Source: Cyanidioschyzon merolae (lineage: Eukaryota). From it: 64,000 bases of DNA. The stretch lies in assembly GCA_000091205.1 (NCBI GenBank), contig AP006496.2. The stretch is one strand, 5' to 3'. The position numbers and the translations under genes were made by a program. Shown piece after piece: positions 3,831 to 48,415 of this stretch (position 1 is its first letter; every line of letters starts with the position of its first letter). The notes under the pieces are model-generated. The model did no database searches. It had not been told where the DNA came from and saw nothing but the letters and a program-made list of their open reading frames with translations.

Positions 3831-5528
3831 ATGGCGCCTGCTGTCAAGCGAAGAGCCGCGGACGCCACCGCCGCTTCGCTACCCGCCTCGTCGCCGTCAG
3901 CTGAGCGTGTGCAGGCGGCAGACTTGGACGTCATGCATCAGGGCCGCACCAAAGAGGACACACCACAGCATGAGCACCCGGGCGCTGACCCGCAGAAACA
4001 ACAGGCATCACCACTCGAACGACTAGTGCTGCGCTCGACTGCGCACGTACGCGCGAACCCGGACGCCTGGCTCACGGGTGCGCTCGTGCTGCTTGGACTG
4101 TGGACGCGCCTCTACCGGATCCGCTGGCCACCCGAATGCGTCTTCGATGAGGTTCACTTTGCGTCGTTCGCACACCACTACCTCAACCGCACCTACTTCT
4201 TTGATATCCACCCGCCTCTGGCGAAGCTCACGCTGGCCGCAGTCGCGAAACTCGCTGGTGACGTCCCGAATCGCGACTGGTACGTCGACAAGGTCTACCC
4301 ACCAGACAGCCGGTACTATGCGATGCGCGCGTGCGCTGGCGTCTTCGGGGCGCTCCTGCCTCCGCTAGGCTTCCGCATCGCCCGCGGGATGGGTATGTCG
4401 CGGATCGCAGCCACTAGTGTGGGCGTGTTTCTGCTCTTCGACATGCTGAACCTGATCGAGGCGCGCCATATCCTCACGGACTCGCAGCTCATCTTCTACG
4501 CTGCGCTATGCATCGATGCGTTCGTGCGGCTGTGGCGCACGCCTCCAGCGAGCCGCGCTCGACGCTGGGCTGCTGTGCGCGCCGGCCTCGCGAGCGGTGC
4601 AGCGCTCTCAGTGAAGTGGACCACGCTCGTGGTGCCCGGCCTCTTCGGCCTCGAGTCGGTTGCCGGCGCTGCGCTCGCCGCCGAGCCGCTCGAGTGGAGC
4701 ACCTGCGCGATCGTCGCCGCAACAGCCCTGCTCTTGTACGTGGCGCTCTGGTACCCGCACTTTCGGATTCTGATCTATAATGGACCAGGCGGTGACTTTA
4801 TGAGCGCCGAGTTCCAGCGGACCCTCATTGGTCGCGACGGCTACGACCCGCAGGCCCGAAAGCCGCCTTTCCTCAAGCTCGTCTGGCAGCTCAACAAGGA
4901 GATGCTGCTGGCGAACGCGCGCATCCTCGATGAGCACCAGTGGCAAGCGCGCTGGCACACATGGCCATACGTAGGCCGTGGCCTCCTTTACTGGAATCGC
5001 TGGCAGGAGGGTACGTTGGATGCTGACGGGCGACCGCTGCGCCCGCATCACGCCATGCAGATCTATCTGATCGGGAATCCGCTGCTGTTCTGGATGTGCT
5101 TGGCAGCGGTGCTTGGTACAGTGGCGGCAATGCCGTTCTTGCTGCGCCTGATTCGCCAGCGGAAAAAGCGTGGAACGAGCACGGACGCATGGGAGCGCTA
5201 CCTGCGGCTGGCAACATTCCTTCTGCTTGGCTATGCGCTCGGCATTCTCCCGTACATGCCGATCCAGCGAAGTACGTTTATCTACCACTACCTGCCGTCG
5301 CTGTTGTTCGCGGAGCTGCTTTTTGCGCACGCGGTCCTCGATCTGCCGGCGCTACCGTCGGTGCTGCAGCTGCCGCTCGCCGGTATCGTCTGGATCGTTG
5401 TCTTCTGGTGCTTCTGGTACTTCCGCGCCTGGGTCTATGGACACATCGCGCTCACCGCCGACGACCATGAGGCCATGCGCTGGATCAAGTACACGTCCAG
5501 CGTAGGCGACAACAAGGGATGGCACTGA
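3831..5528 (+). CDS. Dolichyl-phosphate-mannose--protein O-mannosyltransferase (PMT, GT39 family), lacking the MIR loop
   Basis: 565-aa ORF with the PMT signature ECVFDEVHFASFAHHYLNRTYFFDIHPPLAKL (the DE motif of loop 1) and multiple TM segments. The loop-5-flanking motifs DFMSAEFQRTL and WHTWPYVGRGLLYW are directly adjacent with about 60 aa between them, so the roughly 190-aa MIR domain is missing. Codon usage is GC3-rich. Confidence 0.85.
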   Translation: MAPAVKRRAADATAASLPASSPSAERVQAADLDVMHQGRTKEDTPQHEHPGADPQKQQASPLERLVLRSTAHVRANPDAWLTGALVLLGLWTRLYRIRWPPECVFDEVHFASFAHHYLNRTYFFDIHPPLAKLTLAAVAKLAGDVPNRDWYVDKVYPPDSRYYAMRACAGVFGALLPPLGFRIARGMGMSRIAATSVGVFLLFDMLNLIEARHILTDSQLIFYAALCIDAFVRLWRTPPASRARRWAAVRAGLASGAALSVKWTTLVVPGLFGLESVAGAALAAEPLEWSTCAIVAATALLLYVALWYPHFRILIYNGPGGDFMSAEFQRTLIGRDGYDPQARKPPFLKLVWQLNKEMLLANARILDEHQWQARWHTWPYVGRGLLYWNRWQEGTLDADGRPLRPHHAMQIYLIGNPLLFWMCLAAVLGTVAAMPFLLRLIRQRKKRGTSTDAWERYLRLATFLLLGYALGILPYMPIQRSTFIYHYLPSLLFAELLFAHAVLDLPALPSVLQLPLAGIVWIVVFWCFWYFRAWVYGHIALTADDHEAMRWIKYTSSVGDNKGWH

Positions 5529-7556
5529 AAACGACGTTATGGGAATATGCAGGCGACACAGCTCAGCAGCGTGCCCTCGAAGGAGCGCCTCGAGTGCGCA
5601 GCGGCGTTGCCAGCGGGAAATTAACCGAGGCGCACGCATCGCGCGCGCCCATGCGTGTCACGGGCACGCACCTCGATGCGTGCATCGACACCCTTGACGC
5701 CTCCATGTGATCGAATCCGCTGGGGATGCGCATGTGTGCATGCTCCAAGTGCATTTGTGACGTGCGTGCCTCGAACGATCCTTGTTTGTGACGCCTGGTT
5801 GTGCATGTAACCGCTGGGAACGCATACGTGTTGTTCTTCCAAAGACATCCACTAGACGCAGGCCTGGAAAACGCATTTCCTAGGACTTGTAGGCAGCAAA
5901 GTGGCGTACTGTCGAGCACGTCGGCACTGGGAGCGTGCTCAGCGCACGCAATAGAGCGCACAGTCTCGACTGAGGTGAAGAGGCTTGCGTCATAGATTAG
6001 TTTGTGAACTCGAATCTCTTGGCGACTGGATGCGTGGACTTTACTGACTGGCAGCTGTCGCCCGTATGGGGGGCCACAGCGGGGTGCAAGCGTGACGCTA
6101 GAGTCGCTCGCTGAGAATGGACGCTACTGTATGCTCATCAGCAGGGCTCAGTGCGCCACGACTGGTGTGCAACGCCACCGAACGCGTTTTTCGTCATAAA
6201 GGGGCGGTGTCCGTGCATTGGTGTCTCGGATATAGCACCATCCGCAAGATGCATCGCGCGCGCTCCTCCGCATTCGGATGAGCAATCGCTTCTAGCCATG
6301 CTGTAGCAGCTGATGCGCTCGGTGAATGCACGGGAGTGCCGTCCATGCCAGCGCCATCTAGGTGTCCGCGCACGTCGGGGCCGATTCGCACTGCGATACC
6401 AGGTGGCTCCGTGGCTTCGCGTCCATCGGCCCGCCATCCAAACCACTGCACCTATAGACGACTCGGCATCGCTCCGCTTCTAGCACACCGCCACCTGCTC
6501 GTGCACCCACGTTCTTGGCTGATTCGATATGACCGCGCCACCTCCGGCTATGCTGTCCAGTACGCGCAATCTGATTCCGTTACAGCGCCGTGCGCTCAAG
6601 GGTAACGCACATAGACTCCGCCCGGACCCGGCATTGACATCGACGATGCCCTCACTCCGGAGCTGGATGGCGTCTGCGGCCAGGGCCGACACGCCATGGG
6701 TGCCGGCACCTGGAGGCGGCAGCCGTGTTCCCCGTTGAGCGTCACCTGCAATGCGTGCGGCCGTGCGGCATACGTATTCGAATGATGCAACAATCCCGCA
6801 GTCGGCAATTCCCGTCTAGTGGAAAGCATTCTAAATCCTATCAATTCCAGAGATGCGCAGGCGCCGAGTGCGCCCAGAATCCATACGCAAACGCATACAA
6901 AGCGTGATGCACGGCAATAGACGCCAAACGAATGTTCTAAGCCCTCTGCCGTTCAAACGTATGCTGCGCGGATCGCACAGACCGCAGCGGGCAGCGCCAG
7001 CAGTGCAGCCGCAGTGCAGCGACATCACTGCCGAGAGATAATGAACGCGATCAAGAGTCCTACGAGAACACCGCCAACCGTCGCTACACCCGTCAGCAAC
7101 ATAGTGACGTCAACCTGGTGCAGTGGGCCCACGTCCAGGAGGACCGGCTCACGTGCGCCTATCACGAGGAAGCCCGCTTGAGCCAAGGACATACCTGCCA
7201 GTGCGCTGCGGTCAAGCGACGCCCGCAGCTGCACAATCGCAGCCTGCGGGCGCCCAACACGGGACCCTTGCAGAGCACTCGAGCTCCGGTGTCTCTGCAG
7301 GACTTGCCCGAGCACCCACGCTCGTTTGCGATCTTGCAGGCTCGCCGGGTGCAGCGGTGTCCAGCGCCGAGGCAGCACCTGCGACAGCGGCGTTCGTTCG
7401 GCACCCGAAGCGAGCCTCTCGCCAACTACAGAGAAAGCATGCAGTTGCACAAAGGCCACGTCCACGGGCAGTACCCCGAGGCAACAGGACGCACTCGCTT
7501 CCCGACCCTTGCCGGCCGAGCAGCTCGTTGGCGCTGCCATAACAGAGGCCTCAGCA

Positions 7557-7603
7557 CGGTATCGGTATCGGCACTGGCACTGGCACCGGCACCGGCACCG
7601 CTG
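7557..7603. repeat. Compound microsatellite (CGGTAT)2(GGCACT)2(GGCACC)3
   Basis: Direct reading: cggtatcggtatcggcactggcactggcaccggcaccggcaccg. Followed at about 7690-7728 by a CATGCA-rich tract (gcatgcacgcatgcacgcacgcatgcatgcat). Confidence 0.8.
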
Positions 7604-8878
7604 CACACGCTTCACGGCAGTGTCCTATTCTGGGCCTGTTGTCGATCTGCGGGCGTAGCGCAGCACGCGTTGGCGACGCGCTGCACGGAGCGCATGCACG
7701 CATGCACGCACGCATGCATGCATACTGCGATCCATGCACTTGGGTGATGTTTCCAAGTTCAGCGCCCGTACCCGTAGTCTACGGGGTGTATCCATAGATA
7801 GATGCATGCGCAGGCATAGGCGCGTGCGTGTTCGTATGCGGATGGGCAACGGCTGTGTAAAGCACAGATCAGTGTCTAGCGCTGATTCGCATCTGTTTGC
7901 ATGTGCGGAACGCAATCGTTGGTGCCGCAGTCAACATCAACGCCGTCGCCGTGGATGCTTCGGTTACAGGTGCGTCGATCGCAGCGAGCCTTTATAAGGG
8001 CTGCCTTGCATCTCCGCGAAACGCAATTCACATGCCGCAGTAGTGTCATGGGAGCACGCATCGCGCGTGTGTGTGGATACAGTGACGTGTGGCGCTGCTA
8101 GAGGCTGCCTAGCCAACTGCCGCCAAATCCAATGGAATGCTGCATCATTGGGCAATGTCGCGTACACCATTCTGTCATTCCAGCAACAAGGTGCCTCATA
8201 GAATCTGCGGAACGTTCTGCTTCTGAATCCTGCTGCGCACACAGATGCACCGGTAGATACCCTGCACACTGCACACGCATCGTGCATGCACTTCTACCAG
8301 CGGATACGAGCAGCGTCGGCATTCACCGCCGAACCGGAGCATATTCTATGTGAATAAAGCGCCCACACCCTGATCACGAATCAGAGGCTGCAGCGCCACC
8401 CAGGTCGGCCGGGTCCAGCGTGACGCATTCGCTAGCCGATACGCGACTCGTGCTGCTCAGTTGCAGCTGCTCGTTGTGCAGCCCGCCTGCGCAAGTGCAA
8501 GTGCTGCACACTGTTGCGCTCACCGCCAGCACAGAGCGTCGCATCCGAGGGCGTCCGCGCAAGGCACACGACCCGTAGCGGCCGCCTGTCCCGACAAGGA
8601 CAGTCGCAAACCGCACGCTCGCCGATACTGATCTGTGAGCAATCACACAAGTGCAGGCTGTACAGTCTCGCAACGATCAGTCGATTGATGCGTGCCTCCA
8701 CGAGTCAGCGCAGAAGATTCTATCCACTTTCAGCAGTTTTATAGAGGATAGCACGATGCTCCAGGTGCGAGTCTATGGGATATCCGCATTATTATAGGCA
8801 ATGGCACGTATCTATACAGTTTACTCTGCATAAAACTTGAGTTTCTATTCCAGGTAACCCGAGCTCGCCCACTCGAGT

Positions 8879-9868
8879 TTATCTACCACCACCATGCCGT
8901 GATTCTGGCGCTGGGCCCTCAGAACGACTGCGCGCAGACTCCTCAGCGCGAAGGCGCAGCGCCTCTAGCAGCGCCTCCAGATCGTGCCGCCAGTCGCCCG
9001 CTGGTGGTGGCTCGATGCCAAACGCTGCGAACAGGGGACCAGCATCGCCGCGGCTGCGTCTCAGCGCAGTCGAAAGCGCCTCCAGCTGCTGCCGAAACGC
9101 GGCAGATTGCAGCACGCTCTCCAGGTCGATGCTGGATGGCAGGTACTCGCGGCACAGGGCAGCGGATGCAGGTCCGAGGCCCGGCTCGCGGAGAAGCCGC
9201 TCCAGCGCGGGGCCCCAGCGCAGAAGCGCCCCGAGGTCAGGCGTATCATCGGCGCGCGCCTGCGGCTGTCGACTTGCGTCATCCGCAGCATGCACAGCAT
9301 CGGAAGCAGCGCTGGCCCCCAGACGCTGCAGCGCGTCTACGAGCGACTGCCCAAGCGCGGCGGACGACGGACGCGTCGCGCCGTCAGGTACCTGCGAGCT
9401 GAGGCCTGGCCCAGGTCGGGACTCTGCGTCGCTGAGCCGCACCTCATCTGCGTGATCCAAGCCAGCAGGGTCGTCCAGGGGACGACACTCGAGCGCGTTG
9501 CGCAGCCGCTGTGCCAGCCGCACGTCCGCGTCGCAGCGAGGCTCTTGCAGCCAAAAGAACAGCTGTAGATCCGACGACGCAAAGCCCAAGACGAACATTC
9601 TACCAGTCCGGCAGGCGTGCACGCGCCGCCAGTTCGCGTCGCCGGGGAACACGATCAGGTCCTCCTCGATTGCACGGGTTGCGCGGTCGAGCCACTGGAA
9701 GTGCACGAGGCCGTCCGCGGCTCGCACGACACGGACGCAGCCCTTGCGGCCGTCCGAGTGCACCAAACCACTGTCCAGGTACGCGCGACCTGCGCGGAAC
9801 TCCACCAGTACCTGCTCTGGAAGTTCGTCCATCTGGCGTTCCAAGCTTGAAACACGGCCGTCCCGCAC
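8879..9868 (-). CDS. RPN13: Proteasome ubiquitin receptor Rpn13/ADRM1 (Pru domain plus C-terminal DEUBAD-like helical region)
   Basis: LVEFRAGRAYLDSG...LVHFQWLDRATRAIEEDLIVFPGDANWRRVHACRTGRMFVLGFASSDLQLFFWLQEP matches the Pru domain of ADRM1 (LVEFRAGKM...HFCWKDR...EDDLIIFPDDCEFKRV...[23 protein letters not shown]). The true start may be the Met of MDELPEQVLVEF at about 9832. Confidence 0.85.
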   Translation of the reverse strand: MRDGRVSSLERQMDELPEQVLVEFRAGRAYLDSGLVHSDGRKGCVRVVRAADGLVHFQWLDRATRAIEEDLIVFPGDANWRRVHACRTGRMFVLGFASSDLQLFFWLQEPRCDADVRLAQRLRNALECRPLDDPAGLDHADEVRLSDAESRPGPGLSSQVPDGATRPSSAALGQSLVDALQRLGASAASDAVHAADDASRQPQARADDTPDLGALLRWGPALERLLREPGLGPASAALCREYLPSSIDLESVLQSAAFRQQLEALSTALRRSRGDAGPLFAAFGIEPPPAGDWRHDLEALLEALRLRAEESARSRSEGPAPESRHGGGR

Positions 9869-10927
9869 ACCAAAGTCACACTCACTCCGAGCAGCAAGGC
9901 TCGACAGTCAGCCACGCGAAAGCCGGTGTAGCGCTCACGGCTTGTCCGGTCATGGACGCCGCACTAAAACGGCGGCAGTGGCACCAAGACCGAAACTGAT
10001 AATAAAAGCTACTCCACCGACAATGAAGTACACGCTAGACGGTGCAGCAGCTTGCACCGATACGAAACGTTCAGAAGTACTAGTAGAGGCGACACACGCC
10101 GCGCACGAACGAGGTCAGGCGCTCTGAATGCCGCTCCGGGCATCGAGCTGGGAGGCGCTGGCGCCGCCACTGGTGACTGCAACCCACGAAGGGCGCAGTT
10201 CACTCATGGGGCGCGTCTCGGGCCCCCCTGTGTGCCGTTGCACTGATGCCCGCACGTTGCAGCGCAAGACTTGGCGAAGCTGTATGACGAGCCGTGCATG
10301 ACACCTGACGGCGAGCATAGCGCAGCGGTCAAGCGGCTGCAGATTCCCGATACCAGAGCGCTCCGTCCAGGTCCCTGGTGTGTATCACAGCGACATGCTG
10401 CCCCCGAGGCTCTCGTAGACGCAGCGTGTGCGTGTCCGGTGCCTCTCGCATCCATGCGCATCACAGAGAAGCGCGAGTGATTGCCAGCGCACGCACATAG
10501 TACACGTGTCCAGTGCGTTGCTTCCGTATGCACACATCCCGAAAGCACCCCGAAAGGAAATCCAATTGTACCACGTGAACCGGTCTCGTTCACCGATACG
10601 CTCTGTTCGATACGCGAATGTATGAGCAGTACAGCGAACAACCACGAAATCAATGTGCTGTTACCAGCGATGTGGCATGAAAGCATCAGCGAGCACATTG
10701 ACCCCTGTGGAATCGCTTTGTCGGAATATTGCCCTGCACGGCTTGGCAGGATCGTCCACCACAGGAATCGCACCGTGCATGACGCTGGCGTTCCGTCGCC
10801 ATCGAACGCACCTGGTGTACTGCGAAACCACCTGCCTGGCATGTCTCTGTCGTATCAAGCAGCGCATCCATCAATGAGTGCGCAGCTATTCATCTGAAAC
10901 TCGCTGCCAGCAGGCCGGCATGCACGC

Positions 10928-11005
10928 CCCGTGCCGATCCCGTGCCGATCCCGTGCCGATCCCGTGCCGATCCCGTGCCGATCCCGTGCCAGTCCAGTGC
11001 CGATT
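10928..11005. repeat. 12-bp tandem repeat (CCCGTGCCGATC) x5 plus degenerate units, followed by an (AGC)n tract at about 11050-11090
   Basis: Direct reading: cccgtgccgatc repeated five times, then ccgtgccagtccagtgccgatt. About 250 bp upstream of the FTR1 start. Confidence 0.85.
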
Positions 11006-11260
11006 GGCGGCTGGCGTGCAGCATGCGCGTGCGCCATCAATATCGGAGGAAGCAGCACGAGCAGCAGCAGCAGTAGCGGTAGTCGTAGCGTCGTGGAACC
11101 CGCCAACTTGTTCTCCCGCTCATTCTTGCCCGTTGCAGAGGCACGTAGGCGTAGAGACTCACGTTAGGTCGTTTTCTGCAAAAGAACACACTCGGTGTTC
11201 TTAAAGTACTCTCACGGGCTTTTGCATACCATCCCCGACCGTGCTAGTCCTTGCTTTATC

Positions 11261-12841
11261 ATGGTACAGCTCTTCTCACTGGCAGGCTTTATCATTACGT
11301 TTCGCGAGATCCTCGAGGCCTGCATCGTGGTCTCGATCTGTCTGGCATAACTGCGGCGCACCAAGAATGAGCGCTACCTCAGAGACGTCTGGCTGGGCGT
11401 TGCAGCCGGCGTCGGTGTGCTCATCGTCATTGGAATCGCATTCGGCATCGTTTTCTGGACGCGCGGCCAGAAGCTGTATACGGGTCTCACTGAGCTGCTC
11501 TTCGAGGCCATTGTCCGACTGGTGGCGGTAGTGCTCATCACGTGGATGATCTTCTGGATGCTCAACACGGCCGCGCACATGCGCCGCGACCTCGAGGGCG
11601 GGATAGCGCGGGCGCTGTCGAGGCGCGGCCGATGGGGCGTTGCGCTGCTCGTCTTCACGTCCGTGCTGCGTGAGGGCGTCGAGCTCATCGTATTCCTGTT
11701 CGGAATCACGGGCGGTGTCTCGTGGAGCTCGATTCCCATCGCCGCAGCCGTCGGCGTGGCCGTTGCGCTGGTCGTCGCCTGGGCAATCTACCGCGGGGCG
11801 CTCGCCTTCGATCTGCGCCTCTTCTTCGCGCTCTCGTCGCTGCTGCTGATCGCATTCGCTGCGGGCTTCCTGTCGACGGCCTTCCTGGACCTCCAGAAAG
11901 CGAACCTGTTCGGGGCATTCACGCGCAACGGCAACGAGGACGAGTCGATTCCATCCACGCAGCGGCCGTGGTGGAATGCCGCGCTCTGGTCCACCGAGGC
12001 CTGCTGCGCGGACGACGGGAACGAGTTCTTCAACCTGCTGCACGAGCTCTTCGGATACGTGGATGCGCCGACCTTCGTCTCCACTGTCGTCTACTTCGGT
12101 TACTGGACCCTGGCTGGCGTGCTCTGGATCATCGTTGAGCGACGCACCCTGGAGCGCAAACTCTGCCAAATGCACACCGGGTACCTCGTATCGACTGCGT
12201 TCCTGGCGGTAGCTGCCGTGGTGGGGCTCGTCGTCGCCGCTCGCAGCCCGACATGGAACGGCATCCTGGTGACGTGCCTGACTCTGGTGCTGGCGATCAT
12301 CGGTGTAGGTGCCGCCAGCGCACCCCATGCAGCGCTACCGCCGCGTGCGCGTTTCGCCCTCCAGGGCTCCTGCTGGATAGGCCTCGTGCTGGTAGCGTGC
12401 CTGGCGCTGGCGCTGCAGGTTGCACAGGCGATCTGCTCGCCGCAGATTGGCGCGTCGCAGTACTGCTCTATCTCCGATTTCTACTATTGGTTCGTCATCT
12501 TCTCCCCGGACTGGATCGCAAAGACACGGGACGATAACAGCTTCCACGCGCTCGCGGTGCTTACCGTGTCGATATGCTTCACGATGCTGTTCTGCCTCGG
12601 ACAGGGCCTGGTCGGCTTCTACGAGTGGAAGCGTTCAGCGCTGGCGATGCAGCGTGCTGGACAAGCGCCAGCGGCTCTCGCCAAACAGGCGAATACATCC
12701 TCGGATCTGGAAGGCGGGAAATCCACGCCGCTCGATGACTCCTCGATCGATGAGCTTACCTGGGAAGCGCTCGATTCGACGCAGCCTCCGCAGCACGCGT
12801 CGCAGATCGAGATCTCGGCGAGACGGATGCTGGCGGATTGA
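11261..12841 (+). CDS. FTR1: FTR1-family high-affinity iron permease, interrupted by an in-frame TAA at 11348-11350 (codon 30); candidate pseudogene, readthrough or sequence error
   Basis: The ATG at 11261 gives MVQLFSLAGFIITFREILEACIVVSICLA*LRRTKNERYL... The same frame continues unbroken to 12841. It contains both FTR1 RExxE motifs (REILEAC in TM1, REGVELIVFLFGITGG in TM4) and about 7 TM segments. The TAA sits where FTR1 homologues have an aromatic or hydrophobic residue (TAT or TAC would give LAYLRRTK). The first in-frame ATG downstream is at about 11546, which would remove TM1. Confidence 0.75.
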
Positions 12842-13506
12842 ATCAGGGCGCAGCGCGGCACCAGGTCACCGCCGACGACTAGGCGGTACTCATAACAGCG
12901 AGCGCAATCCATGTGCAACGCGACGTATCGCACTTGCCGATTCAAAGAGAATGACAGCGCCTGTGGTTACCCGTCGCGGAGCCGTTCGCATGGTGATAGC
13001 GTCGGCATCACCTGACACCCACTCCGTGGCGCTATGGTGCTTTGCCAAGAACGCGCCCCTGGTTGCCACAGCGTTGCGTACCAGCGAATGGATCATGCGT
13101 CGAGCGCTGCTCTGGTGCGATCATAGACAAGTTCACGTCGAATACTTTGCGCACCGCTGTACCGCATACCGATGACTCGTCTAGCATGCACTGCTACCGT
13201 ACAGTAAAGAACGCTCGTGCAATGCGTATCCCGTTTCTCGCTATCCTGAAAGACAACGGCTCCTCGAGCACACAATATCTCAGCATGCAGGAGTCGAGAC
13301 GCTCTCATCAAGCAGCGCAGCGGCTCCAGCGCCCTGCACGATTGCCCGACGAAACGCCTGGGGCGCGCCCCGATCAAATACCCGAGACACGCCATGCGCG
13401 GGAAACCTGGGGCAGTACTGTTTCGCCTGCAAGTAGGAGGGTGCACTCAAGTGATATCCAGAACTTCCCGCAGCGTGGACACGAGTGCCAACAGGTCGCT
13501 TCAAGT

Positions 13507-14421
13507 ATGCCAGACGAGATCGCTCAAGTTCGTTTTCTGATAGTCGGACGCACCGGTTGGATCGCCAACATGGTTGCAGAGCTACTTGAGCAGCGCGGTG
13601 AGCGGTACGCGTTTGCGAGCTTCCGTCTCGAGCAGCGCGAGGCCTGTGAGCGCGAACTGGACGCGCTGCGCCCACAGCGGGTCCTGAACTGTGCTGGGGT
13701 CACTGGGCGTCCGAACGTCGACTGGTGCGAGGACCACCGGCGCGAGACCGTCCGCAGTAACGTACTGGGCGTGCTGAACCTGGCGGACTGCTGCGCGTCG
13801 CGCGGGATCCACCTCACCAACTTTGCTACCGGCTGTCTATACCACTACGACGACGGCGAGCACCGGCCGACGGCTGAGGGCGGCAGACCCTTCACGGAGG
13901 ACGATCCGCCGAACTTTTTCGGTAGCTACTACAGTCGCACCAAGGCCATGGTGGAGGAGCTGCTGCGCAGCGCTTTTGACAATGTGCTCATCCTGCGACT
14001 GCGCATGCCCGTGAGCGACGACCTGTCGCCGCGCAGCTTTGTCACGAAAATCGCACGCTACGAAAAGGTTGTGAATATCCCCAACAGCATGACGGTTTTG
14101 ACGGAGCTGCTGCTAGTGGCACTGGATATGAGCGAGCGCGGCCTTACGGGCGTGTACAACTTTACCAATCCGGGTAGCATCTCGCATAACGAGGTCCTGG
14201 AGCTTTACAGAAAATATATCGATCCAAAGTTCCAATGGAAGAACTTTACGCTCGAGGAGCAGGCAAAAATCCTCAAGGCCGGCCGCTCCAACTGCGAGCT
14301 CGACGTCCGCAAACTGCTGCGGGACAATCCCGGTGCCCAGATCCGCGAGGTCCACGCCGCCATGGAGGAGGTCTTTCGGCGCATGCAGGCGAAGGGTGTC
14401 AAGCCGCTGGCTGCGCCCTAG
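13507..14421 (+). CDS. UDP-4-keto-6-deoxy-D-glucose 3,5-epimerase/4-reductase (NRS/ER, UER1-type; second half of UDP-L-rhamnose synthesis)
   Basis: FLIVGRTGWIANMVAELL (N-terminal Rossmann GxxGxxG-like motif) and NCAGVTGRPNVDWCEDHRRETVRSNVLGVLNLADCC...YSRTKAMVEELL (the YxxxK of the SDR extended family). Overall collinear with plant NRS/ER and the RHM C-terminal domain. The longer ORF 13042..14421 has a non-homologous N-terminal extension, so the start is placed at the ATG at 13507. Confidence 0.85.
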   Translation: MPDEIAQVRFLIVGRTGWIANMVAELLEQRGERYAFASFRLEQREACERELDALRPQRVLNCAGVTGRPNVDWCEDHRRETVRSNVLGVLNLADCCASRGIHLTNFATGCLYHYDDGEHRPTAEGGRPFTEDDPPNFFGSYYSRTKAMVEELLRSAFDNVLILRLRMPVSDDLSPRSFVTKIARYEKVVNIPNSMTVLTELLLVALDMSERGLTGVYNFTNPGSISHNEVLELYRKYIDPKFQWKNFTLEEQAKILKAGRSNCELDVRKLLRDNPGAQIREVHAAMEEVFRRMQAKGVKPLAAP

Positions 14422-15631
14422 TATAGCACCGCAGGTGGCGTACTTTGCGGCAAAACGGTTACGCACCGAGTGACGGGTCGATGGCGTGCGCTCCCAGGGA
14501 CGACTCGCTTTGCGTGCAGGGAAGCGACTGCGACTGCAGGCGCGCTAGCACAATCCTGCACTGGGCGAAAGGAACGGAAGCGTCATTGGCACCAGGGCAC
14601 TTATTGCCGTGTAAGGCACCTTTCGACGCGGACCTCAAGGCTGACTGCGAGGCGTTCTGGAAAGACTTGCTCCGATAGGCTAGCTCCGCTGTGGCATCCG
14701 CTACAGGCGAAATCGGATACCGGGATGATCCAACTGCAGCGCCCTTCTAATAGTGATCCGTGTAAATGACGCAAGCTTCTGAAGAGAGTACATCAAAGTG
14801 GCGCAGGCATTTGTTCCTGGCGTTCATGTGTGCCTTCGAATGCAGCATCCAGGGGCCTGCAGGCATTGGCTGGACGACTGCCTGCTAGCAGCGGTCAGGA
14901 TTACAGGGATCCAAGGGACTCGATACGTGCATACGTGCATTACTGCATTCGTGCATGCTTCCATACGTAAAAACGTGTGAATGCTGGTGAGCACTGCGCG
15001 AATATGTGCACGCGCGCACGCTGCAGCATGGGAACACAGCGTTCTCGCCACGCTCTGGCTGGGATGTCTGAGCGATGGGAACGTGCTGTCGATGCTGCCA
15101 CATAAGCAGAGTCCGTCAAGGCCGACACGCTCGAGACAGCGCTCATGAATTGCATAGTGGAGCGGATTCACGTGCGCGAACACAGGAACGAACACACAAA
15201 CAAGTCCTAGTGGCAAGGCGAGTTTCAACAGATCCCCGAAAGCGCCCACACTCCGTACCTGCCAGCAACATCACTGTCGGTCGCTATCGCGCTGCTGCCC
15301 ACAGCGCGAATGATGCACACATATCTCCTTGGATTCATGCCGCCAGCCTCTGTGTTGATCCTTCTGCCCTACACCATGATGGAAGCGCGCGATCCACAGA
15401 GTGCGCGCGCAATCGCCGCCCGCCGCATCAGCGATGCGTGCGCGGTGGCGACGCTGCTGCCGCCATCATCGGTCGCATACCTGGGACACGTGTCTCGCTA
15501 GAGATGGATCCTGTTGAAACAGAAACGCGCGCCACGATCGTGGCGTTACCGCCTGTGCAGGCAGAGCGCGGAAGTAGCCGGTGCGTGTGGTTGTGTGTGT
15601 CCGAGTCGAAAGGCGCACGTTGGCAAAATAA

Positions 15632-16762
15632 ATGTCCTCGCAGAGCACGGCGCTTTCGAACGGTGCCAAGTCGGTAACCGGTGGACAGCCCGACGGGAAC
15701 TCGGACGCGCTGGTCGTCTACGGCGACCGTCTGCGCTTCGTGCCGCGGAATATCCTTGTGACTGGCGGTGCCGGCTTTATTGCCTCGCACGTTGTCGAAC
15801 GGCTCGTGAGTCGATATCCCCATTACCGCGTGACGGTACTGGACAAGCTCGACTACTGCTCGTCGCTGAGCAACCTCGCGCAGGTGGCAAACCGACCAAA
15901 CTTCAAGTTTATTCGCGGCGATATCCGCTCGCATGACCTGGTGCTCTACGTGCTCCAGGAGGAGTGCATCGATACAGTGCTCCACTTTGCGGCGTGCACG
16001 CACGTCGACAACTCGTTCACGTCCTCGATCCTGTTTACGGAGAACAACGTGCTGGGAACGCACGTCCTCCTGGAGTGCGCACGCCAGTACGGCAAAGTGC
16101 GGCGCTTCATTCACGTCAGCACCGATGAGGTGTACGGCGGCGAGAGCAACATGGAGACAGAGTCATCGATCCTGGCACCCACGAACCCGTACGCATGTAG
16201 CAAGGCCGCCGCCGAATTCATTTGCCGCGGCTACGTCAAGTCGTTCGGATTGCCGGTGATCATCACACGCGGCAACAACGTGTACGGGCCGCACCAGTTC
16301 CCCGACAAGCTCATTCCCAAGAGTATCTGTCTGCTGGCGCAACGCCGGCCCTGCTTTGTACACGGCTCTGGTGAGCATGCACGCAACTTTTTGTACGTCG
16401 AGGACGCGGCGAGCGCCTTTGACACCATCCTGCATTGTGGCGAGACCGATGAGGTCTACAATGTAGGCTCTGAGATCGAGAAACGCAACATTGACGTTGT
16501 GCACGACATTATCGATCTCTTCGGCCTGTCTGCCGAGGCGAACCGCCACATCGAGTTTGTCAAAGATCGCACCCTCAACGATATGCGCTACAGGATCGAC
16601 TCGTCGAAGCTGCATGCGCTTGGCTGGAGGCCGCAGGTGTCCTGGGAAGAGGGCCTGCGCCGAACCAAGACCTGGTACTGTGATCCGAATAACCTGAAGC
16701 GCTGGCCGAATTATCTCAGTGGCCTCGTACCGCATCCGAGTCTCACCGAGGAGAAGCACTAG
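15632..16762 (+). CDS. UDP-glucose 4,6-dehydratase (RHM N-terminal-domain type; first step of UDP-L-rhamnose synthesis)
   Basis: ILVTGGAGFIASHVVERL (GxxGxxG), YRVTVLDKLDYCSSLSNL, HFAACTHVDNSF, STDEVYG and YACSKAAAEFICRGY (YxxxK) are the dTDP/UDP-glucose 4,6-dehydratase hallmarks. Same strand as NRS/ER, 1.2 kb downstream. Confidence 0.9.
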   Translation: MSSQSTALSNGAKSVTGGQPDGNSDALVVYGDRLRFVPRNILVTGGAGFIASHVVERLVSRYPHYRVTVLDKLDYCSSLSNLAQVANRPNFKFIRGDIRSHDLVLYVLQEECIDTVLHFAACTHVDNSFTSSILFTENNVLGTHVLLECARQYGKVRRFIHVSTDEVYGGESNMETESSILAPTNPYACSKAAAEFICRGYVKSFGLPVIITRGNNVYGPHQFPDKLIPKSICLLAQRRPCFVHGSGEHARNFLYVEDAASAFDTILHCGETDEVYNVGSEIEKRNIDVVHDIIDLFGLSAEANRHIEFVKDRTLNDMRYRIDSSKLHALGWRPQVSWEEGLRRTKTWYCDPNNLKRWPNYLSGLVPHPSLTEEKH

Positions 16763-17259
16763 GACGGCATTCATCGCGTACGCATTGAGCATGCGGCAGG
16801 CGAGAATTCGAGCGACACTGCCGCTGGTCTGTGCATCGCAGACGGCGATCCGCAGAGCAGCGTGGCATAGGATCGCCAGCGGATGCGCCTTTTGTACATG
16901 TATGACGGTTCCAAGCGTGTCTCAGGTGCGCCTCTCTCGACAAGTCTGTAATACGAGGCGCTTTCGTGTCGCCTGCAACACAGGACGCATCTGAAGCGAT
17001 GCGCACCGACGAAAGCGCGCATACTCTATCGACCGAGGGTCGTGGGCTTGCGACCTCATGATCTTGTGCCGGTTGCAGAGCGTATGTTACAACACACGAC
17101 AGCAGCAGGGCAGTTGACGCAGCACAGGTTCGCGCGCGGCAGGTACAGCGAGCTCTGGGCGGCGTCGGTTGCACCGATACGCTCTGCGCTCGACGCGCTT
17201 CTGTTGCATAAACGTGTACTGAGGCTGTGCTCCAATAACCTGCAAGACGCCTATGTCCC

Positions 17260-17904
17260 ATGCCACGCGGTTTGCAGAGGTATGCTTTCGTCGAGTTTGC
17301 GTCTGGAAGCGCGTTGTTACGGGTGCGGCGGGTGAAGCATTCGGCGTCAAGAACTAGCCGCACACCGGCACGCTGTGCTGTGTCAGAGCCGTCGCCAGCG
17401 TCACCGTCCAGTGGCGACCAGCCGACCCAGACAGTGCGTGTACGACCTGGTGAGCGGTCGCTGCGGCTGAATGCGCTACAGCGCTGGTTGCTCGGCCGAC
17501 TGAGGCGAAGCCTCGAGCGCCTCTCCCCCGGCAACGTGCCCAACCTGCTTAGGAGCGCCGTCGCGCGGGCGCGTGGTGCCCCCGCGGACCCACCGCCCTT
17601 GGACGATGACTACCTCGACAGTGTGCTGCTCCCAGAGTCAGATGAGCGGCACTTTATATCGCCGGCACTCCGACGCGTCCTGCGCGACGCGCCTGCGCAG
17701 CCTGCCAAGGGCGTTTACACAAGCGACCCGTCGCGGACGTTCTGGGAGCAACTGATCCTCTGGGCAGGCGTGGTGCTCGTCGCTCTCGCCGTCCTGCGCG
17801 TCCTTTGGCTCTTTATCAGTGCTATCCTGGGAATTTCGCTGAGTCTCATCGTCATCGCCGTCGTCACCGTGTTCGTTTTCGTGGCGTTCACAGTACTCGG
17901 CTAG
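17260..17904 (+). CDS. Hypothetical tail-anchored/C-terminal TM protein
   Basis: 214-aa ORF ending in a strongly hydrophobic stretch (WAGVVLVALAVLRVLWLFISAILGISLSLIVIAVVTVFVFVAFTVLG). No recognisable domain. Ends 15 bp from the convergent ORF 17919..19052. Confidence 0.3.
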   Translation: MPRGLQRYAFVEFASGSALLRVRRVKHSASRTSRTPARCAVSEPSPASPSSGDQPTQTVRVRPGERSLRLNALQRWLLGRLRRSLERLSPGNVPNLLRSAVARARGAPADPPPLDDDYLDSVLLPESDERHFISPALRRVLRDAPAQPAKGVYTSDPSRTFWEQLILWAGVVLVALAVLRVLWLFISAILGISLSLIVIAVVTVFVFVAFTVLG

Positions 17905-17918
17905 AGAATTGGGAACTA

Positions 17919-19052
17919 TCAGGGAACCGTACCGCTCCCAAACACATCCACGGGCTCATCGCAGAGCTGCCGACGAAGCAGGTGCAGCTGCGTACGCAGC
18001 CGGTAACCCCGCGGCTCCGGCACCGTACGCGCAACCTGCGTCCAAGCAGCAAGCACCGTGCGAAGCTGTTGCAAGACATGCCGACGCATCGAATGTATCG
18101 CCGCGGCAATGTCGGGAACGACATTCCAATCCAGCAGGAGCAAGTGCATCGCATCCACCATCCACTCTAGATCACTCGCATCGGAAGCGCGTCCCGACGT
18201 GCGGCCGGCCTCATAGCGTGGCAGGCACAGCGCGCCAGCGACACGTGCAAGTAGCATAACCGACGCGTGCCCTGCATCCGCCTCGGACGCACCATCATCG
18301 ATGCGGGCAACTGCAGACTCCAGTGCCTCAACCTGCAATTCAGTACGACGCGATACCCAGCTCTCCAGGAGACGCGCACATAGACACTTTTGAAGCCAAC
18401 GCGAGCGCCCTCGTGGTGGAATCACCCAAATCAAGGCAACGAGCGCCGGCAGCCAGCATCGTGTCAAGTGATCGTGCCCACAGAGGCGGCAATGCGGCAC
18501 GTCGTCGCGCACGCATCGGCACCAGCACGCAATCGCCGCATCAGTGGACACGCGATCCGCTGCGATGCCGATGACCTCTGCCAGCTGCGTGCGCCAATGA
18601 CGTGCCATCGCTGCTTGGCATGTGTAGATCGCCAGCACGTCGTCGATAAACGCCAGGAGCTGCTCGTCATTCCATGCTGCGGCGCGCAGGTTGCGTTTCA
18701 GCAGGTGCCAGAACGGCTCGAGGGTGCTGCGTATCTGCGTTAGCGCAGGCTCCGCAGCCGGGTTTTGTGTCGTCACCGCGGCTGCTGCTGTCTCCAGCAG
18801 CTGGTGCACGAACGCGCCCGGAAGCGTCAGAACGCGCTTCAAGCGGTGAGCGTGGCGATAGGCTGGGCATAGGGTCGACACTCGTGAGCTCGAGGCGCGT
18901 TTCGAATGGACAGGCTCGTCCAGCGCGCACACATCGCACCAGCCCAGGAGGCCGAGAGGAGAACGCGCGAGGGCCATGCAACCCAAGCGTCGCAGCGTCA
19001 CGTGCAGAGCGCCCATGGCTAGCATGTGTTGATCCCGGGGGGTATCACACAT
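17919..19052 (-). CDS. Hypothetical protein (377 aa, predicted helical), no recognisable family
   Basis: Long ORF with GC3-rich codon usage in an otherwise ORF-poor stretch. No motif I recognise. Confidence 0.4.
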   Translation of the reverse strand: MCDTPRDQHMLAMGALHVTLRRLGCMALARSPLGLLGWCDVCALDEPVHSKRASSSRVSTLCPAYRHAHRLKRVLTLPGAFVHQLLETAAAAVTTQNPAAEPALTQIRSTLEPFWHLLKRNLRAAAWNDEQLLAFIDDVLAIYTCQAAMARHWRTQLAEVIGIAADRVSTDAAIACWCRCVRDDVPHCRLCGHDHLTRCWLPALVALIWVIPPRGRSRWLQKCLCARLLESWVSRRTELQVEALESAVARIDDGASEADAGHASVMLLARVAGALCLPRYEAGRTSGRASDASDLEWMVDAMHLLLLDWNVVPDIAAAIHSMRRHVLQQLRTVLAAWTQVARTVPEPRGYRLRTQLHLLRRQLCDEPVDVFGSGTVP

Positions 19053-20823
19053 CTGCTGAGCGGCTCACTCAAACGGACGGTGACTTGACGTCCGAATTCT
19101 AATCATTCTAGCATGGCCCCATCTATGCTAGAAAACAAGTTCATCTGGTTCTAGCGAGCATGCTAAACTTCGATGCGCTTTTCACCTCTATCAATATCAA
19201 GCTTTGAGGCTCGTTCTGCAACCGCTTCGCTTTCTTCCCCCTCATTGTCGGTTTTGAGTACGCGAGTCTTTCGATTTCCATAGGCTCCTGCATATGGAGT
19301 CGGAGCAAGTAAAATCCAGGGTACCTGTCTGTTATCTCTGTCCCAGAGTAGCGCTGAGCGCAACGTATCGCAAGCTAGGGCGCCCACCCAATGAAACTGT
19401 GCTTGAAGGCGTTCTGTCAGGGAATGGCGCCCCTTGGTGGGAGCGGAGTGCACCTTTTTCCGAGATGCTGCAGAATATCTTTGGTACTCCGACGGGATAC
19501 ATCCCAAGGCGTAGCTGGTGCACATGAGCGTGCTGTGGCTTGTTTGATGAACAAGAAGTATATATAATATTTACGATTTATGCTTCGGTCATCTTTATTC
19601 TTCACGTTTCGCCGGAACTCGGCGATCCACAAATATACGAAGCCTACGAAACGAGCACCAACCCGCACGGCAATTTCAGTGACAGCGCTATCACCATCGA
19701 GCACCAGCTCGTAACGAGGACGACTTCAGGGATAGAAACGTGCATTCACTTCCATGAATCTGTTCTTCAAGGCCCCGCATGACGTGCTCAATCGCGGTTG
19801 ACACACGAAGAAGAGCTTTGGTTATCTAGCAGGACTTTCCTCTGTTTTTTTATTTTCTTCGGATAGAAGCCTTCGATCGGGGTCTTTTCTGTGATCAAAC
19901 AAGTACCGGAAGGCAATTCAAGTTTGAGAAAATGTACAGGAATTTCAATCTGCCCATATTCCTTTCGTGCAAATCGGCAATAAACGCCCCACACGTGGCC
20001 GTCGCTGTGAGTACTCGAGTCCGATTCCAGTATTCTTCGCCGAGCTGAATGAAAAGACGAGAGCCTCTGGAAGCCAATCCCGCGAGAATAATGATGCTTC
20101 TGTGGAATGCCGTTTCGCGTGTTGCCCCTCGGCGAAAAGGTATCGTTCTTCGAACGAGATCTGTTTTGTATCATAAAAGGTTAAACAAGCTTTCGGAATG
20201 AGCTGGTGAATTTTGCGCTAATATACGACATGGAAGTCCTATTCTTTGTCAATCAAACTGCACGGATTTTTGCAATAAGGAGTTCTTTCTGCATAAAAAT
20301 CAAAAACTTGAAGAATGCGTCTGATTTGCAGACAACATCTAAGGAGACCAGAATTATGTACCCTTGTGTTGAGGAATTGGATAATTGTGAGGTTAGCTTT
20401 GTAGACCGTCGTCCGAAGATCCGCGATAATCATGATTCTGCAGATTCAACGGATTTCGGTGGGAAAGATTCGAAAGTGACGCACCAAACCGACCCCGGAG
20501 GAACCTCTTTCTACCAACGAATCTGCAATCAAATATTGTGGTGCATGCGTTGCGTAAACCGTATAGGTAGAAATTGGAAAACGGATCGAAAAGCAACAAC
20601 AGAACGAGCAATTCAAAGTCTCATTGTTGTCGGACACGGGTCAAGTACTCTGTGACCGTGGCAATCGACGTCGTCCAAACCCGCGCGCACAAAGAATCTT
20701 GGATTCTGAAGGGAATGCTCTCAACTGGAGATAATTCTTATGTTATATTGAGCTCTGGCTCGCAGGCAGAGTACGTTGAGATTACGTCAGTCAATGTACA
20801 ATTTACGAATAGGTAAATAAATA

Positions 20824-21612
20824 CTACAAACCGAAGTCATCTATTCCGGTGTCGGCCGTTTCAGCGTCTGTCTGATCCTCTTGCGCTTCGCTCTCCGCGG
20901 CATGTCGTCGTTTCCGACGACGCACCGCGAATACAAGAAGCGCACAGCAACTAGACAGTAATAGAGTTCCAAGCACCACTATGATAACGATCACCCAGAC
21001 AGGGAGCGGACTCGAGCTCGAAGTGACCAATCCGGCTATAGTTACTGTTCCATTCGGCGCTACACAGACTGGAGAGCCGTAAAACTTGGATAGTTCAGCG
21101 CTGAGTGTGCCATTTTTCAACGCTTCGCGAAGTTCCGATGCGATCTGCAAAGCCGTTGAACCATCGGCATCCCAGACGCTCGTCGTATTATAAAGTATCA
21201 GAGATTGCGCACTGCCAATGCAACTTACAAACTCGTCTGCGTCCAACCTGAAGTCCGACTCACGAATACTTGACTTAGTGATCTCACGCGTACTATTCAC
21301 AATAAAACTCAGTGGAGTAATACCGAAGAGTACCTCCATGGCATGGCGAAGCGCGTCAGCCAACGCAGACTCAGAGGCAACACCCGTGAAAAACGCCTCA
21401 TTCAGTATCAGATGTACAGGATTGCCGGTTGTAGTACTCGAAACAGACACACTAGAAGAAGCAGATGCACTCAAAGAACTGGAGAAAGAAACGGACGCGC
21501 TCACAGACGCACTTGCATATTGGCTAGATGTGACCGAGACCGACGCAGATGCTAATGCTGACGCGGAGGCAGTGATGCTGAGGCTGTGGCTGACGCTACT
21601 CTGCGATTGTTG
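20824..21612 (-). CDS. Ser-rich type-I membrane protein segment (mucin-like stalk, single TM, acidic cytoplasmic tail); open frame extends upstream to 21612 without an ATG
   Basis: SASVSVTSSQYASASVSASVSFSSSLSASASSSVSVSSTTTG ... NGT sites ... TM VWVIVIIVVLGTLLLSSCCALLVFAV followed by RRRKRRH. The ORF track starts it at a GTG. The frame stays open to 21612 and overlaps the end of the upstream ORF in another frame. Confidence 0.5.
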   Translation of the reverse strand, partial: QQSQSSVSHSLSITASASALASASVSVTSSQYASASVSASVSFSSSLSASASSSVSVSSTTTGNPVHLILNEAFFTGVASESALADALRHAMEVLFGITPLSFIVNSTREITKSSIRESDFRLDADEFVSCIGSAQSLILYNTTSVWDADGSTALQIASELREALKNGTLSAELSKFYGSPVCVAPNGTVTIAGLVTSSSSPLPVWVIVIIVVLGTLLLSSCCALLVFAVRRRKRRHAAESEAQEDQTDAETADTGIDDFGL

Positions 21613-24592: not shown

Positions 24593-25375
24593 GTGCCGAG
24601 TCCAGAAGAAAAGGAAGAGAGAAAGAAGAAGGACAGAAAGGGGGAGGTCCTACTTCGAAGGCGGCAAGAAAGACGGCTGTACGACGAGAAGGTGGTGAAA
24701 ACCTTCCTTCTTGGACATATCAAGGATTCCTACAGGGAAAAGTTGCGAGACGCTATCGAAAAACGTGTCGACTCGCACACCAAGAGTATTGTGAAGGCGT
24801 CGTCAGGACTGATGCATTTAGCGAGGGAGATGTATCGCGACGTGACGCAAATGGAAACGGTCGAGATTCCGGACGATTTTTTCGACAAGACCTTTCTTCG
24901 TCAGCTGATGCTTGGGACAGGTGAATCGCGGAGGGAAACTCAGCTAGGGCATGCCCTCCACGAAAACTTCGCGGAATTCCACTTCGAGGGTAATCGATAC
25001 AGGGGTGACTGGCGTATTTACAAATATAGGGCAATGAAGTACCTCACGAACCTGAAGAACTATTTGACAACGAACCTCGAACGTTTCGTGATACGCGCCG
25101 TGGTTGCACTCTACCCGGGCCTGTCTCGCAAAAGAATATGGGCCATCATCGATGGTATCACGAAAGATCGCAAGCATGAAGATGAGGTCGAATTTGTCGA
25201 CAAGAAGGCGTCAAAAGTGAGAACGAATGAAGCTTCTCTGATCCGTGCGGCTATTCAAGAGCACCGTGCAGTCTTAGGGCTGGTGACTCCAACAGACAAG
25301 ATATCAGAGTTGAAAAAAGATAAGGAAAGATACTATCGCCTCGTCCTGCGGTACCTCGTGTTTCTGGACCGATAG
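24593..25375 (+). pseudogene. Copy A, N-terminal segment of the Fanzor-like protein (lysine-rich NLS-like start, then a helical region); ends at a TAG where the copy at 47323..47763 has GAG
   Basis: Aligns along its length with 59161..60318(-) (the MKKQVDDPGGPGS...ERFMIRAVFALYPGLSRK region). Here LDR*LERKAEM versus [11 protein letters not shown] in copy 5. Confidence 0.65.
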
Positions 25376-26090
25376 CTCGAACGCAAGGCGGAGATGAAGC
25401 TGAGAGGCGAAAAAATGAAGAGTGGGAGAGACGGAAGGCTGTCCTAATGGGTAAGCGCTTCAACGGCGTTCCAGTGTGCAACCTCAAGTCACATTTTGTG
25501 AGTATCGACTCCAGAGTCCTTGACGCCGCATGAAAGAGATCAGTCCCGAGTTCGATGTTAGCAGGGAGGAGTTCTCCGGCGAAAACCGGGAGACCCACTG
25601 GAAGAATATCTTCGATTTCAAACGTCTGAGAGTGAGCAAGCAAACGGTATTCACTGGTTTGATCGAAACCGATGGAGTAGCCTTGTGTGTACACTATCGG
25701 CGGTTGAAGAAAGATCGGCCAGTTCCGCCCTCGGCTGCGCCCGTGACGAAGGATGGAGAAAAGGAGGAGTCGGATCCTGCGATGCAGGAGGTGGAGGATA
25801 ACGACTTTGTCGTTGACGTGGCGAAGGATGAAGATGAGAAGGAGGCGGATCCCACGACGCAGGAGGTGCAAGATAATGACCTTGTCGTCGACGCTGCGAG
25901 GCATGAAGATGAGAAGAAGGCGGATCCTGTGATGCAGGAGGTAGAGGATGACAACCTTGTCGTTGACGCGGCGGAGCATGAAGAAAACAAGAAGGCGGGT
26001 TCTGAGAAGCAGAAAGTGCAGGAAAACGACTTTGTCGTTGATGTGACGAAGCATGAAGTTGAGAAGGAGGCGGAACCTGCGACGTAGGAG

Positions 26091-26981
26091 GTGGAGGGTA
26101 ACGACTTTATCGTTGACGCGGCGAAGAATGAAGAAAAGAAGGCGGCGGGTCCTGTGACGCAGAAAGTGCATGAGAATGACTTTGTCGTTGGCGCAGACCC
26201 TGGAAACACAAATATCATAACCATCGCTGCACCGAAGCGTGCGGAACTTGGTATTGACGGCAACTTGCGTCAGAAAGACATGCGTCTTTTGGGGTTCTCG
26301 AGAGCGAGATACTATCGAGAATCGGGAATGATGAATGCGAGGAAGAAAATTGAGACTTGGAATTCAGGAATGAAGGATCACCTGGAAGCCTTGAGCGAGG
26401 TCATGAGCCGGGGAGCGGACTTTCGGGCTTTTCGGGAATTCATGGAAGTTCGTGTTACCCATTGGGATGCGCTGTGGGAGGAGTATACCAAGCTCCGGTG
26501 GGCTCGTTTGCGTAAGAATCTATACGGTGGGAAACAGCGGGCGTTTGCCAACTTTTTCAGTCAGTTGAGTGCCTTGAAGGAGGATGAGAGTCAGAGGCTG
26601 GTAGTGGCATACGGAGCAGGGCGCTGGGCGCCCAAGAAAGGCACTGCGCCAGCTCCAACGACAAGATCATACAAGGAGTGCGCATGGCGTTTCGTCACGA
26701 TACCTGTAGATGAGTTTCGAACGTCCTATACACACCATGAACTGGGGTGTACACTGCAGAGAGTGGAGATTGAAAAGTGTCAGCGGAGTCCTGAGGAAAT
26801 AGCAAAGTACGGACCGCTGACGGAAGAGCAAATGGGAAGGAAGGCGAAAGTGCGAGGGCTACATGCACTAGGGAGTACAACTCACAACGGCAAGAAACGG
26901 ATGGAATTCTTGAACCGAGACTTTAACGTCGCTATGAATATACGGAGATGTGCGGTGCTGGAGACGAGACCTCCAGCGTAG
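26091..26981 (+). pseudogene. Copy A, RuvC nuclease segment of the Fanzor/TnpB-like protein
   Basis: [15 protein letters not shown] (RuvC-I Asp), RAFANFFSQLSALKEDESQRLVVAYGAGRW (RuvC-II region), FRTSYTHHELGCTLQRVEIEKCQRS (ZnF-like), KKRMEFLNRDFNVAMNIRRC (RuvC-III, RD.N.A.NI). It is preceded by a TAG that aligns with CAG (Gln) in the repeat consensus. Confidence 0.7.
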
Positions 26982-48400: not shown

Positions 48401-48415
48401 CGAAGGTCTTTGCAT

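Follow-up and report, generated by a model that had tools for sequence, protein, structure and literature searches.

Near the left end of chromosome 14 of Cyanidioschyzon merolae 10D lie two neighbouring genes whose published names come from the bacterial dTDP/Rfb pathway, and the question that they raise is which sugar nucleotide they make, and whether their standing side by side means anything to the cell. We refer to them as R (CMN004C, BAM81155.1; 13507..14421, + strand) and D (CMN006C, BAM81156.1; 15632..16762, + strand); the window analyzed here is the whole 64,000-nucleotide stretch of contig AP006496.2 (assembly GCA_000091205.1) that contains them. A first, sequence-only reading of this window had interpreted the pair as the plant RHM enzyme in split form, with R as an NRS/ER-type UDP-4-keto-6-deoxyglucose 3,5-epimerase/4-reductase and D as a UDP-glucose 4,6-dehydratase. 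Our results make it highly probable that, taken together, the two genes represent a two-enzyme eukaryotic route to UDP-beta-L-rhamnose, that their linkage is old within the Cyanidiales, and that they are switched on in diploid cells.

The two open reading frames (ORFs) had been placed exactly in the first reading: R encodes 304 amino acids and D 376, and the 1210-bp spacer between them (14422..15631) contains stop codons. R starts at the ATG at 13507 and its stop codon ends at 14421, with a reading frame that stays open further upstream; GenBank places the start of BAM81155.1 at the ATG at 13186, which yields 411 amino acids. The 304-residue form agrees with the copies of the gene on chromosomes 10 and 17, with metagenome gene calls and with the 302-residue orthologue of Cyanidium.

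Homology and motifs identify R. Pfam recognizes only RmlD_sub_bind and Epimerase in this protein. When solved structures were searched, however, R matched Arabidopsis NRS/ER (UER1, PDB 4qqr) with 354 bits (E = 7e-105, 58% identity) and the Mimivirus UDP-L-rhamnose synthase L780 (PDB 7jid) with 222 bits (1e-64, 44% identity), as against just 35.6 bits (6.6e-08) for RmlD, and GDP-fucose synthase gave no match at E <= 1e-3. On the RmlD equivalog model TIGR01214, R reaches 63.7 bits, under the cut-off of 224.05, and it is 58% identical to the C-terminal domain of plant RHM, a protein that came from a search of cluster representatives, the Arabidopsis NRS/ER query for homologues having returned only single-domain plant UER1 orthologues. 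R is thus clearly predicted to be an NRS/ER, as the sequence-only reading had it, and not an RmlD; a GDP-fucose synthase, also considered, was ruled out by the score gap, so that R passes the check which that reading had set for it.

R aligns end to end with Arabidopsis NRS/ER and with L780, and keeps the Rossmann motif (GRTGWI at 14-19), the catalytic cysteine and lysine and the Tyr-x-x-x-Lys pair. Cys110, Tyr142, Lys146 and Lys181 correspond to Cys108, Tyr136, Lys140 and Lys175 of L780 and are invariant in 249 homologues; in L780, the catalytic Cys108 and Lys175 are backed by mutagenesis (PMC9614988). It differs from both relatives in being a stand-alone red-algal gene with Leu203 in place of a near-invariant proline.

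The assignment of D draws on homology, motifs and a tree. The 376-residue translation is identical to BAM81156.1, and its best match among solved structures is Mimivirus R141 (PDB 6vlo; 297 bits), with characterised RmlB enzymes at 264 bits or less and UXS at about 100 bits, a gap that rules out D as a UXS. A filter-free search of 1.84 billion cluster representatives gave, as its second-best match overall, a 675-residue protein that is a plant RHM, since its C-terminal half is all but identical to Arabidopsis NRS/ER; its N-terminal domain is 56% identical to D (402 bits). Another protein, P0392 (854 amino acids), fuses a UDP-glucose pyrophosphorylase-family domain (Pfam UDPGP) to a dehydratase that is 55% identical to D, an arrangement that points to a UDP-sugar as the likely substrate of the D-type clade. 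On the RmlB equivalog model TIGR01181, D scores 346 bits, under the cut-off of 365.1.

D carries GGAGFI at 45-50, STDE at 163-166 (Thr164-Asp165-Glu166) and YACSK at 187-191 (Tyr187/Lys191), and has the Thr-Asp-Glu and Tyr-x-x-x-Lys motifs of the UDP-glucose 4,6-dehydratases (plant RHM N-domain, Trichomonas TvUGD, R141 and fungal UG4,6-Dh), from which it differs in being a single-domain protein with a 38-residue N-terminal extension. The residue that bears most directly on the nucleotide is His244, which aligns with Tyr208 of DesIV and Gln206 of R141. Gaglianone et al. 2022 (PMC9741107) describe a thymine-stacking tyrosine, Tyr208 in DesIV, in bacterial dTDP-preferring enzymes and a histidine in UDP-preferring eukaryotic ones, and place Gln206 of R141 at this diagnostic position. 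At this ribose-sensing position TvUGD has a histidine, like D, and R141 instead a glutamine. In a neighbour-joining tree, the five Tyr-type RmlB sequences (characterised or equivalog) form a clade with 100% bootstrap and D falls outside it, within a red-algal clade (74-80% bootstrap). By these comparisons D comes closest to the UDP-glucose dehydratases of eukaryotes, the N-domain of plant RHM among them, and appears to be neither an RmlB nor a UXS; the first reading, which had named phylogeny as a check on D, was borne out by scores and residue and, as regards RmlB, by the tree.

From homology and the conserved catalytic residues, we infer the chemical steps of the two enzymes. D, a short-chain dehydrogenase/reductase (SDR) with bound NAD+, would oxidise C4 of UDP-glucose, remove water across C5-C6 and reduce the product, giving UDP-4-keto-6-deoxyglucose, on which R, as a bifunctional NRS/ER, would carry out epimerisation at C3 and C5 followed by NADPH-dependent reduction of C4, giving UDP-L-rhamnose.

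The neighbourhood of the two genes extends beyond C. merolae. In Cyanidium caldarium, R is followed by D on the same strand after a 290-bp spacer, and downstream of D lie weak homologues of the next two genes of our window, then the genes for V-ATPase subunit E and a RabGAP, the same outer neighbours that Cho 2023 gives for Cyanidiococcus chr08. R and D are also linked in Cyanidiococcus, and in a further relative (L012) they are adjacent but divergent. No R was found within 10 kb of D in Galdieria partita, Porphyridium purpureum or Gracilaria domingensis, and the R orthogroup has zero members in G. partita in the orthogroup tables of a 2026 Plant Cell paper on the cyanidiophycean sexual cycle. 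The linkage of R and D is thus a feature of the Cyanidiales that is older than its spread at chromosome ends, and must already have been present in the ancestor that Cyanidium and Cyanidioschyzon share. With respect to the criteria used for metabolic gene clusters, R and D catalyse consecutive predicted steps, are adjacent, and are co-induced in their chromosome 10 and 12 copies (see below), but they are two genes only and both have the SDR fold.

The spacer itself indicates how the two genes may be organised. Contig L003 matches the window only from position 15431 onwards, 201 bp upstream of the start codon of D, and contig L010 begins at this same point. In L003, the place of R is taken by a 714-residue ORF (570..2714) with no Pfam match, and the locus probably represents the chromosome 13-type context of the solo D gene CMM017C. 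We propose that R and D are separate transcription units, and that D, where it has been duplicated on its own, retains some 200 bp of the sequence upstream of it.

The position of the pair in the genome was already known, since it is an annotated gene pair within a published subtelomeric block. Positions 1..11 of the window read CCCCCCCCATT, a remnant of the telomere repeat in reverse complement (AATGGGGGG; repeat unit per Nozaki 2007), so that, counted from the left telomere of chromosome 14, R and D lie at 13.5-16.8 kb. Nozaki 2007 drew a gene set M, I, R, D at chromosome termini of C. merolae, and Cho 2023 described a 21.5-kb block with a protein O-mannosyltransferase (PMT), RPN13, an iron permease, R and D on chromosomes 10, 12, 14 and 17, and also on two Cyanidiococcus chromosomes; its Supplementary Dataset 5 lists the present copy (12..21558) as 'Chromosome 14 S 12-21558 M,RPN13,I,R,D'. 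Indeed, the order that we recover from Pfam and ORFs, going inwards from the telomere, is PMT, RPN13, iron permease, R and D, and the adjoining telomere repeat, the gene order and the chromosome 14 coordinates identify it as that same block. The same arrangement occurs in metagenome contigs from hot springs, which show 98-99% identity with the window and cover 6162..21572. The papers on the block use the bacterial dTDP/Rfb names and do not treat rhamnose or diploid-specific expression.

The other copies lie at the right end of chromosome 10 and the left ends of chromosomes 12 and 17 (Cho 2023). The orthogroup tables of the 2026 Plant Cell paper list CMJ313C, CML007C, CMM017C, CMN006C and CMQ006C for D and CMJ314C, CML005C, CMN004C and CMQ005C for R, and the R/D accession pairs are BAM80402/80401, 80648/80649, 81155/81156 and 81943/81944, with BAM80917 as the solo D; the positions of copies on other chromosomes are based on the adjacency of accessions and on Cho 2023. 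Among the copies on chromosomes 10, 12, 14 and 17, D differs by 1-2 amino acids and R by 2-4, and copy-specific nucleotide differences occur, for instance, in codons 5, 49, 55, 180, 203 and 302 of R and codons 17 and 27 of D. In the course of events that we envisage, the pair would have joined a chromosome-end block in the Cyanidioschyzon/Cyanidiococcus lineage, and this block would have spread to four C. merolae ends.

That the two genes might be co-regulated had been suggested from their adjacency, and this suggestion finds support in published RNA-seq on the near-identical copies on chromosomes 10 and 12 (Supplementary Data Set 8 of the 2026 Plant Cell paper). In cell-walled diploid MS1, haploid MS1 Ha3 and haploid 10D, respectively, the values in transcripts per million are ~138, ~10 and ~7 for CMJ313C (D, chromosome 10), ~71, ~2 and ~3 for CMJ314C (R, chromosome 10), ~196, ~6.5 and ~3.4 for CML005C (R, chromosome 12), and ~76, ~4 and ~6 for CML007C (D, chromosome 12), corresponding to 15-60-fold higher levels in cell-walled diploids than in wall-less haploids (log2 fold change 3.9-6.0). 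PMT (CMJ319C; 79, 88 and 77) and RPN13 (CMJ316C; 101, 163 and 160) are flat across the same samples and thus not co-induced with R and D. The iron permease behaves in yet another way (CMJ315C; 16, 13 and 131): in strain 10D, its copies CMJ315C and CML004C exceed their levels in the diploid and in the haploid of MS1 about 8-14-fold, so that the difference is one of strain, not of ploidy. CMX081C, the chromosome 10 paralogue of the 214-residue gene downstream of D, is 2-2.7-fold higher in diploids.

R and D would thus be turned on together in the cell-walled diploid phase and be near-silent in wall-less haploids such as 10D. Since the two are co-induced in walled diploids, the rhamnose most likely goes into the wall of the diploid cells or into glycoproteins of that wall. 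In a 2026 preprint, rhamnose is reported from a wall fraction of C. merolae, under a single culture condition only. The 2026 Plant Cell paper makes no mention of rhamnose in its text, and the R and D genes are not named in the files searched of the H3K27me3 supplements of Mikulski 2017. The sequence-only reading had overlooked the chromosome end, the multi-copy subtelomeric block, the linkage in Cyanidium and Cyanidiococcus, and the diploid expression.

Two other accounts of what the pair is have to be weighed against a UDP-rhamnose route. According to the labels in use in GenBank, Nozaki 2007 and Cho 2023, R and D would be the RfbD/RmlD and RfbB/RmlB of a bacterial-type dTDP-L-rhamnose pathway acting on dTDP-glucose, and the score of D on the RmlB model does come near its cut-off; moreover, R141 and L780 accept dTDP-sugars as well as UDP-sugars in vitro. 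The bacterial rml (rfb) operon RmlA-B-C-D also performs the same overall chemistry and, like the C. merolae pair, has its pathway genes linked. Its route, however, uses three enzymes after activation, including a separate cupin epimerase, with dTDP-sugars and a tyrosine-bearing dehydratase, whereas no RmlC-type gene lies near the pair, and a single protein that scores far better with NRS/ER than with RmlD would perform both epimerisation and reduction. Both R and D stay below the equivalog cut-offs of the bacterial enzymes, and D has a histidine in place of the tyrosine found in all five RmlB sequences and lies outside their fully supported clade. We therefore consider a dTDP pathway very unlikely. 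Still less credible, to the point of being nearly negligible, is that the pair arose by recent fission of a fused RHM-type gene. Both proteins are 56-58% identical to the halves of plant RHM, but the red-algal homologues that we recovered all have a single domain, no R lies within 10 kb of D in Galdieria, Porphyridium or Gracilaria, Yin 2011 recorded fusions from plants and nematodes only, and the genes stand in the order R then D with a spacer of 0.3-1.2 kb, as opposed to the single plant polypeptide, in which the dehydratase precedes the epimerase/reductase. This last argument, which the sequence-only reading had relied on, is weaker than it seems. Among environmental sequences, fusions of NRS/ER and dehydratase occur in both orders, and at least 10 clusters are R-first, the opposite of plant RHM (P0450, P0491, P0440, P0531, P0478, P0497, P0464, P0453, P0518 and P0409; one also with an N-terminal RmlC cupin domain), so that gene order says little about fission. 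That reading's conclusion against a recent fission is nonetheless reasonable, given the single-domain red-algal homologues and the unlinked D elsewhere. Its description of the pair as a split RHM is correct as to two separate genes but marks nothing special: outside plants and nematodes, as Yin 2011 showed, the dehydratase and the epimerase-reductase are as a rule encoded by separate genes, and that study already listed members of the RHM and NRS/ER families for C. merolae; Wagstaff et al. 2019 reported NRS/ER orthologues in some red algae. The split is thus the ordinary eukaryotic state.

A different question is whether the adjacency has any functional meaning, or is inherited synteny carried along passively by the copying of chromosome ends. 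Cyanidiales genomes are 86% collinear, so that conserved neighbours are to be expected; the block also contains unrelated genes (RPN13, iron permease), and D exists alone on chromosome 13 (CMM017C). On the other hand, no other gene of the block shows the 15-60-fold induction in diploids that is seen with R and D, and the two are still adjacent in the L012 relative despite their divergent orientation. Two given genes among ~4,800 would be neighbours by chance in about 4 cases in 10,000, and these two represent two steps of one pathway. We thus regard a meaningless adjacency as unlikely. A stronger proposal in the opposite direction, namely that R and D are a selected Cyanidiales-specific rhamnose module switched as a unit in diploids, and that its spread to four ends increased gene dosage for a rhamnose-containing, largely proteinaceous wall, is possible, but we hold it only tentatively and lean against it.

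Several observations weigh against the UDP-rhamnose route and its link to the diploid phase as we have set them out. In the neighbour-joining tree, the node that joins the red algae to plant RHM was recovered with 1% support only. The viral homologues R141 and L780 take UDP- and dTDP-sugars in vitro (PMC9614988), and our view of the nucleotide that D and R use in vivo is therefore based on the signature residue His244 and on the families in which the two enzymes fall. The 2026 preprint reports rhamnose as a non-constant component of C. merolae biomass. Reads from copies that are at least 99% identical are not assignable with certainty to one copy, and the diploid induction was measured on the chromosome 10 and 12 copies; we infer that it extends to the chromosome 14 copy. 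Lastly, this copy of the block may be decaying: its R gene has Leu203 (codon 14113..14115) at a position that is proline in the other C. merolae copies, in Arabidopsis NRS/ER, in L780 and in 247 of the 249 homologues, and its iron permease gene has a premature stop. In the chromosome 17 copy of R, the near-invariant Thr180 is replaced by alanine, and these two substitutions suggest relaxed constraint on redundant subtelomeric copies.

The iron permease gene on chromosome 14 (FTR1-type; 11261..12841, + strand; Pfam FTR1, 121 bits) matches its profile only from position 51 onwards. Comparison by tblastn and blastn with the 99%-identical contig L001 shows an in-frame TAA at 11348..11350 (codon 30) where that contig has TAC (Tyr), directly after the first REXXE-like motif (FREILEA), and the gene is probably a pseudogene or encodes an N-terminally truncated protein. 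On its telomeric side lie the gene for the proteasome ubiquitin receptor RPN13 (8879..9868, - strand; Pfam Rpn13_ADRM1_Pru, 97 bits) and a gene for a short PMT/GT39 protein of 565 amino acids (3831..5528, + strand; Pfam PMT, 129 bits, and PMT_4TMC, 123 bits), in which Pfam detects no MIR domain.

Downstream of D, a 214-residue protein with a C-terminal membrane segment (17260..17904, + strand) and a 377-residue protein (17919..19052, - strand) are conserved neighbours, both with no Pfam match. The former is weakly but significantly similar to the genes that occupy this place in Cyanidium and L012, and the C-terminal 160 residues of the latter share 26% identity with its positional counterpart in Cyanidium. 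The sequence-only reading had placed the pair in a glycosylation context within the same 64 kb, of which the PMT and a TPT/NST-family transporter (48410..49351; Pfam TPT, 48.7 bits) are present, the latter beyond the duplicated block, at a distance of 32 kb. As to the two Ser/Thr-rich surface proteins that it had listed, an ORF scan of the window did not find them and gave only two spurious-looking Ser/Thr-rich ORFs. It had also suggested that the rhamnose may be destined for O-glycans of mucin-like surface proteins, which our results do not support; the PMT of the block is not induced along with R and D. Consecutive ORFs at 24593..26981 (+ strand) have terminal motifs that appear TnpB/Fanzor-like by eye, with a second partial copy at 30244..30816 (+ strand); the ORFs at 24.6-27 kb had no match in Pfam, NCBIfam or the PDB. 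They probably belong to CMe-1A, a Fanzor1 element of roughly 3 kb with about 150 copies in C. merolae (Bao and Jurka 2013).

Earlier work had already described the pathway, its occurrence as two genes in eukaryotes other than plants, and the subtelomeric block, and what is added here is modest: a relabelling to UDP-rhamnose, a Cyanidiales-specific linkage, a link to the diploid phase, and signs of decay in the chromosome 14 copy of the block. GenBank and the two genome papers say dTDP/Rfb, and the evidence favours a eukaryotic UDP-rhamnose route, so that the sugar nucleotide to look for is a different one. If the pair were indeed a selected module, UDP-rhamnose would serve to mark the newly discovered diploid stage and would offer a genetic handle on it, a use absent from the papers that provide the data. 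The pair offers a simple knock-out target, and sequence evidence together with published RNA-seq ties predicted rhamnose synthesis to the walled diploids of a model alga, about whose wall chemistry little is known.

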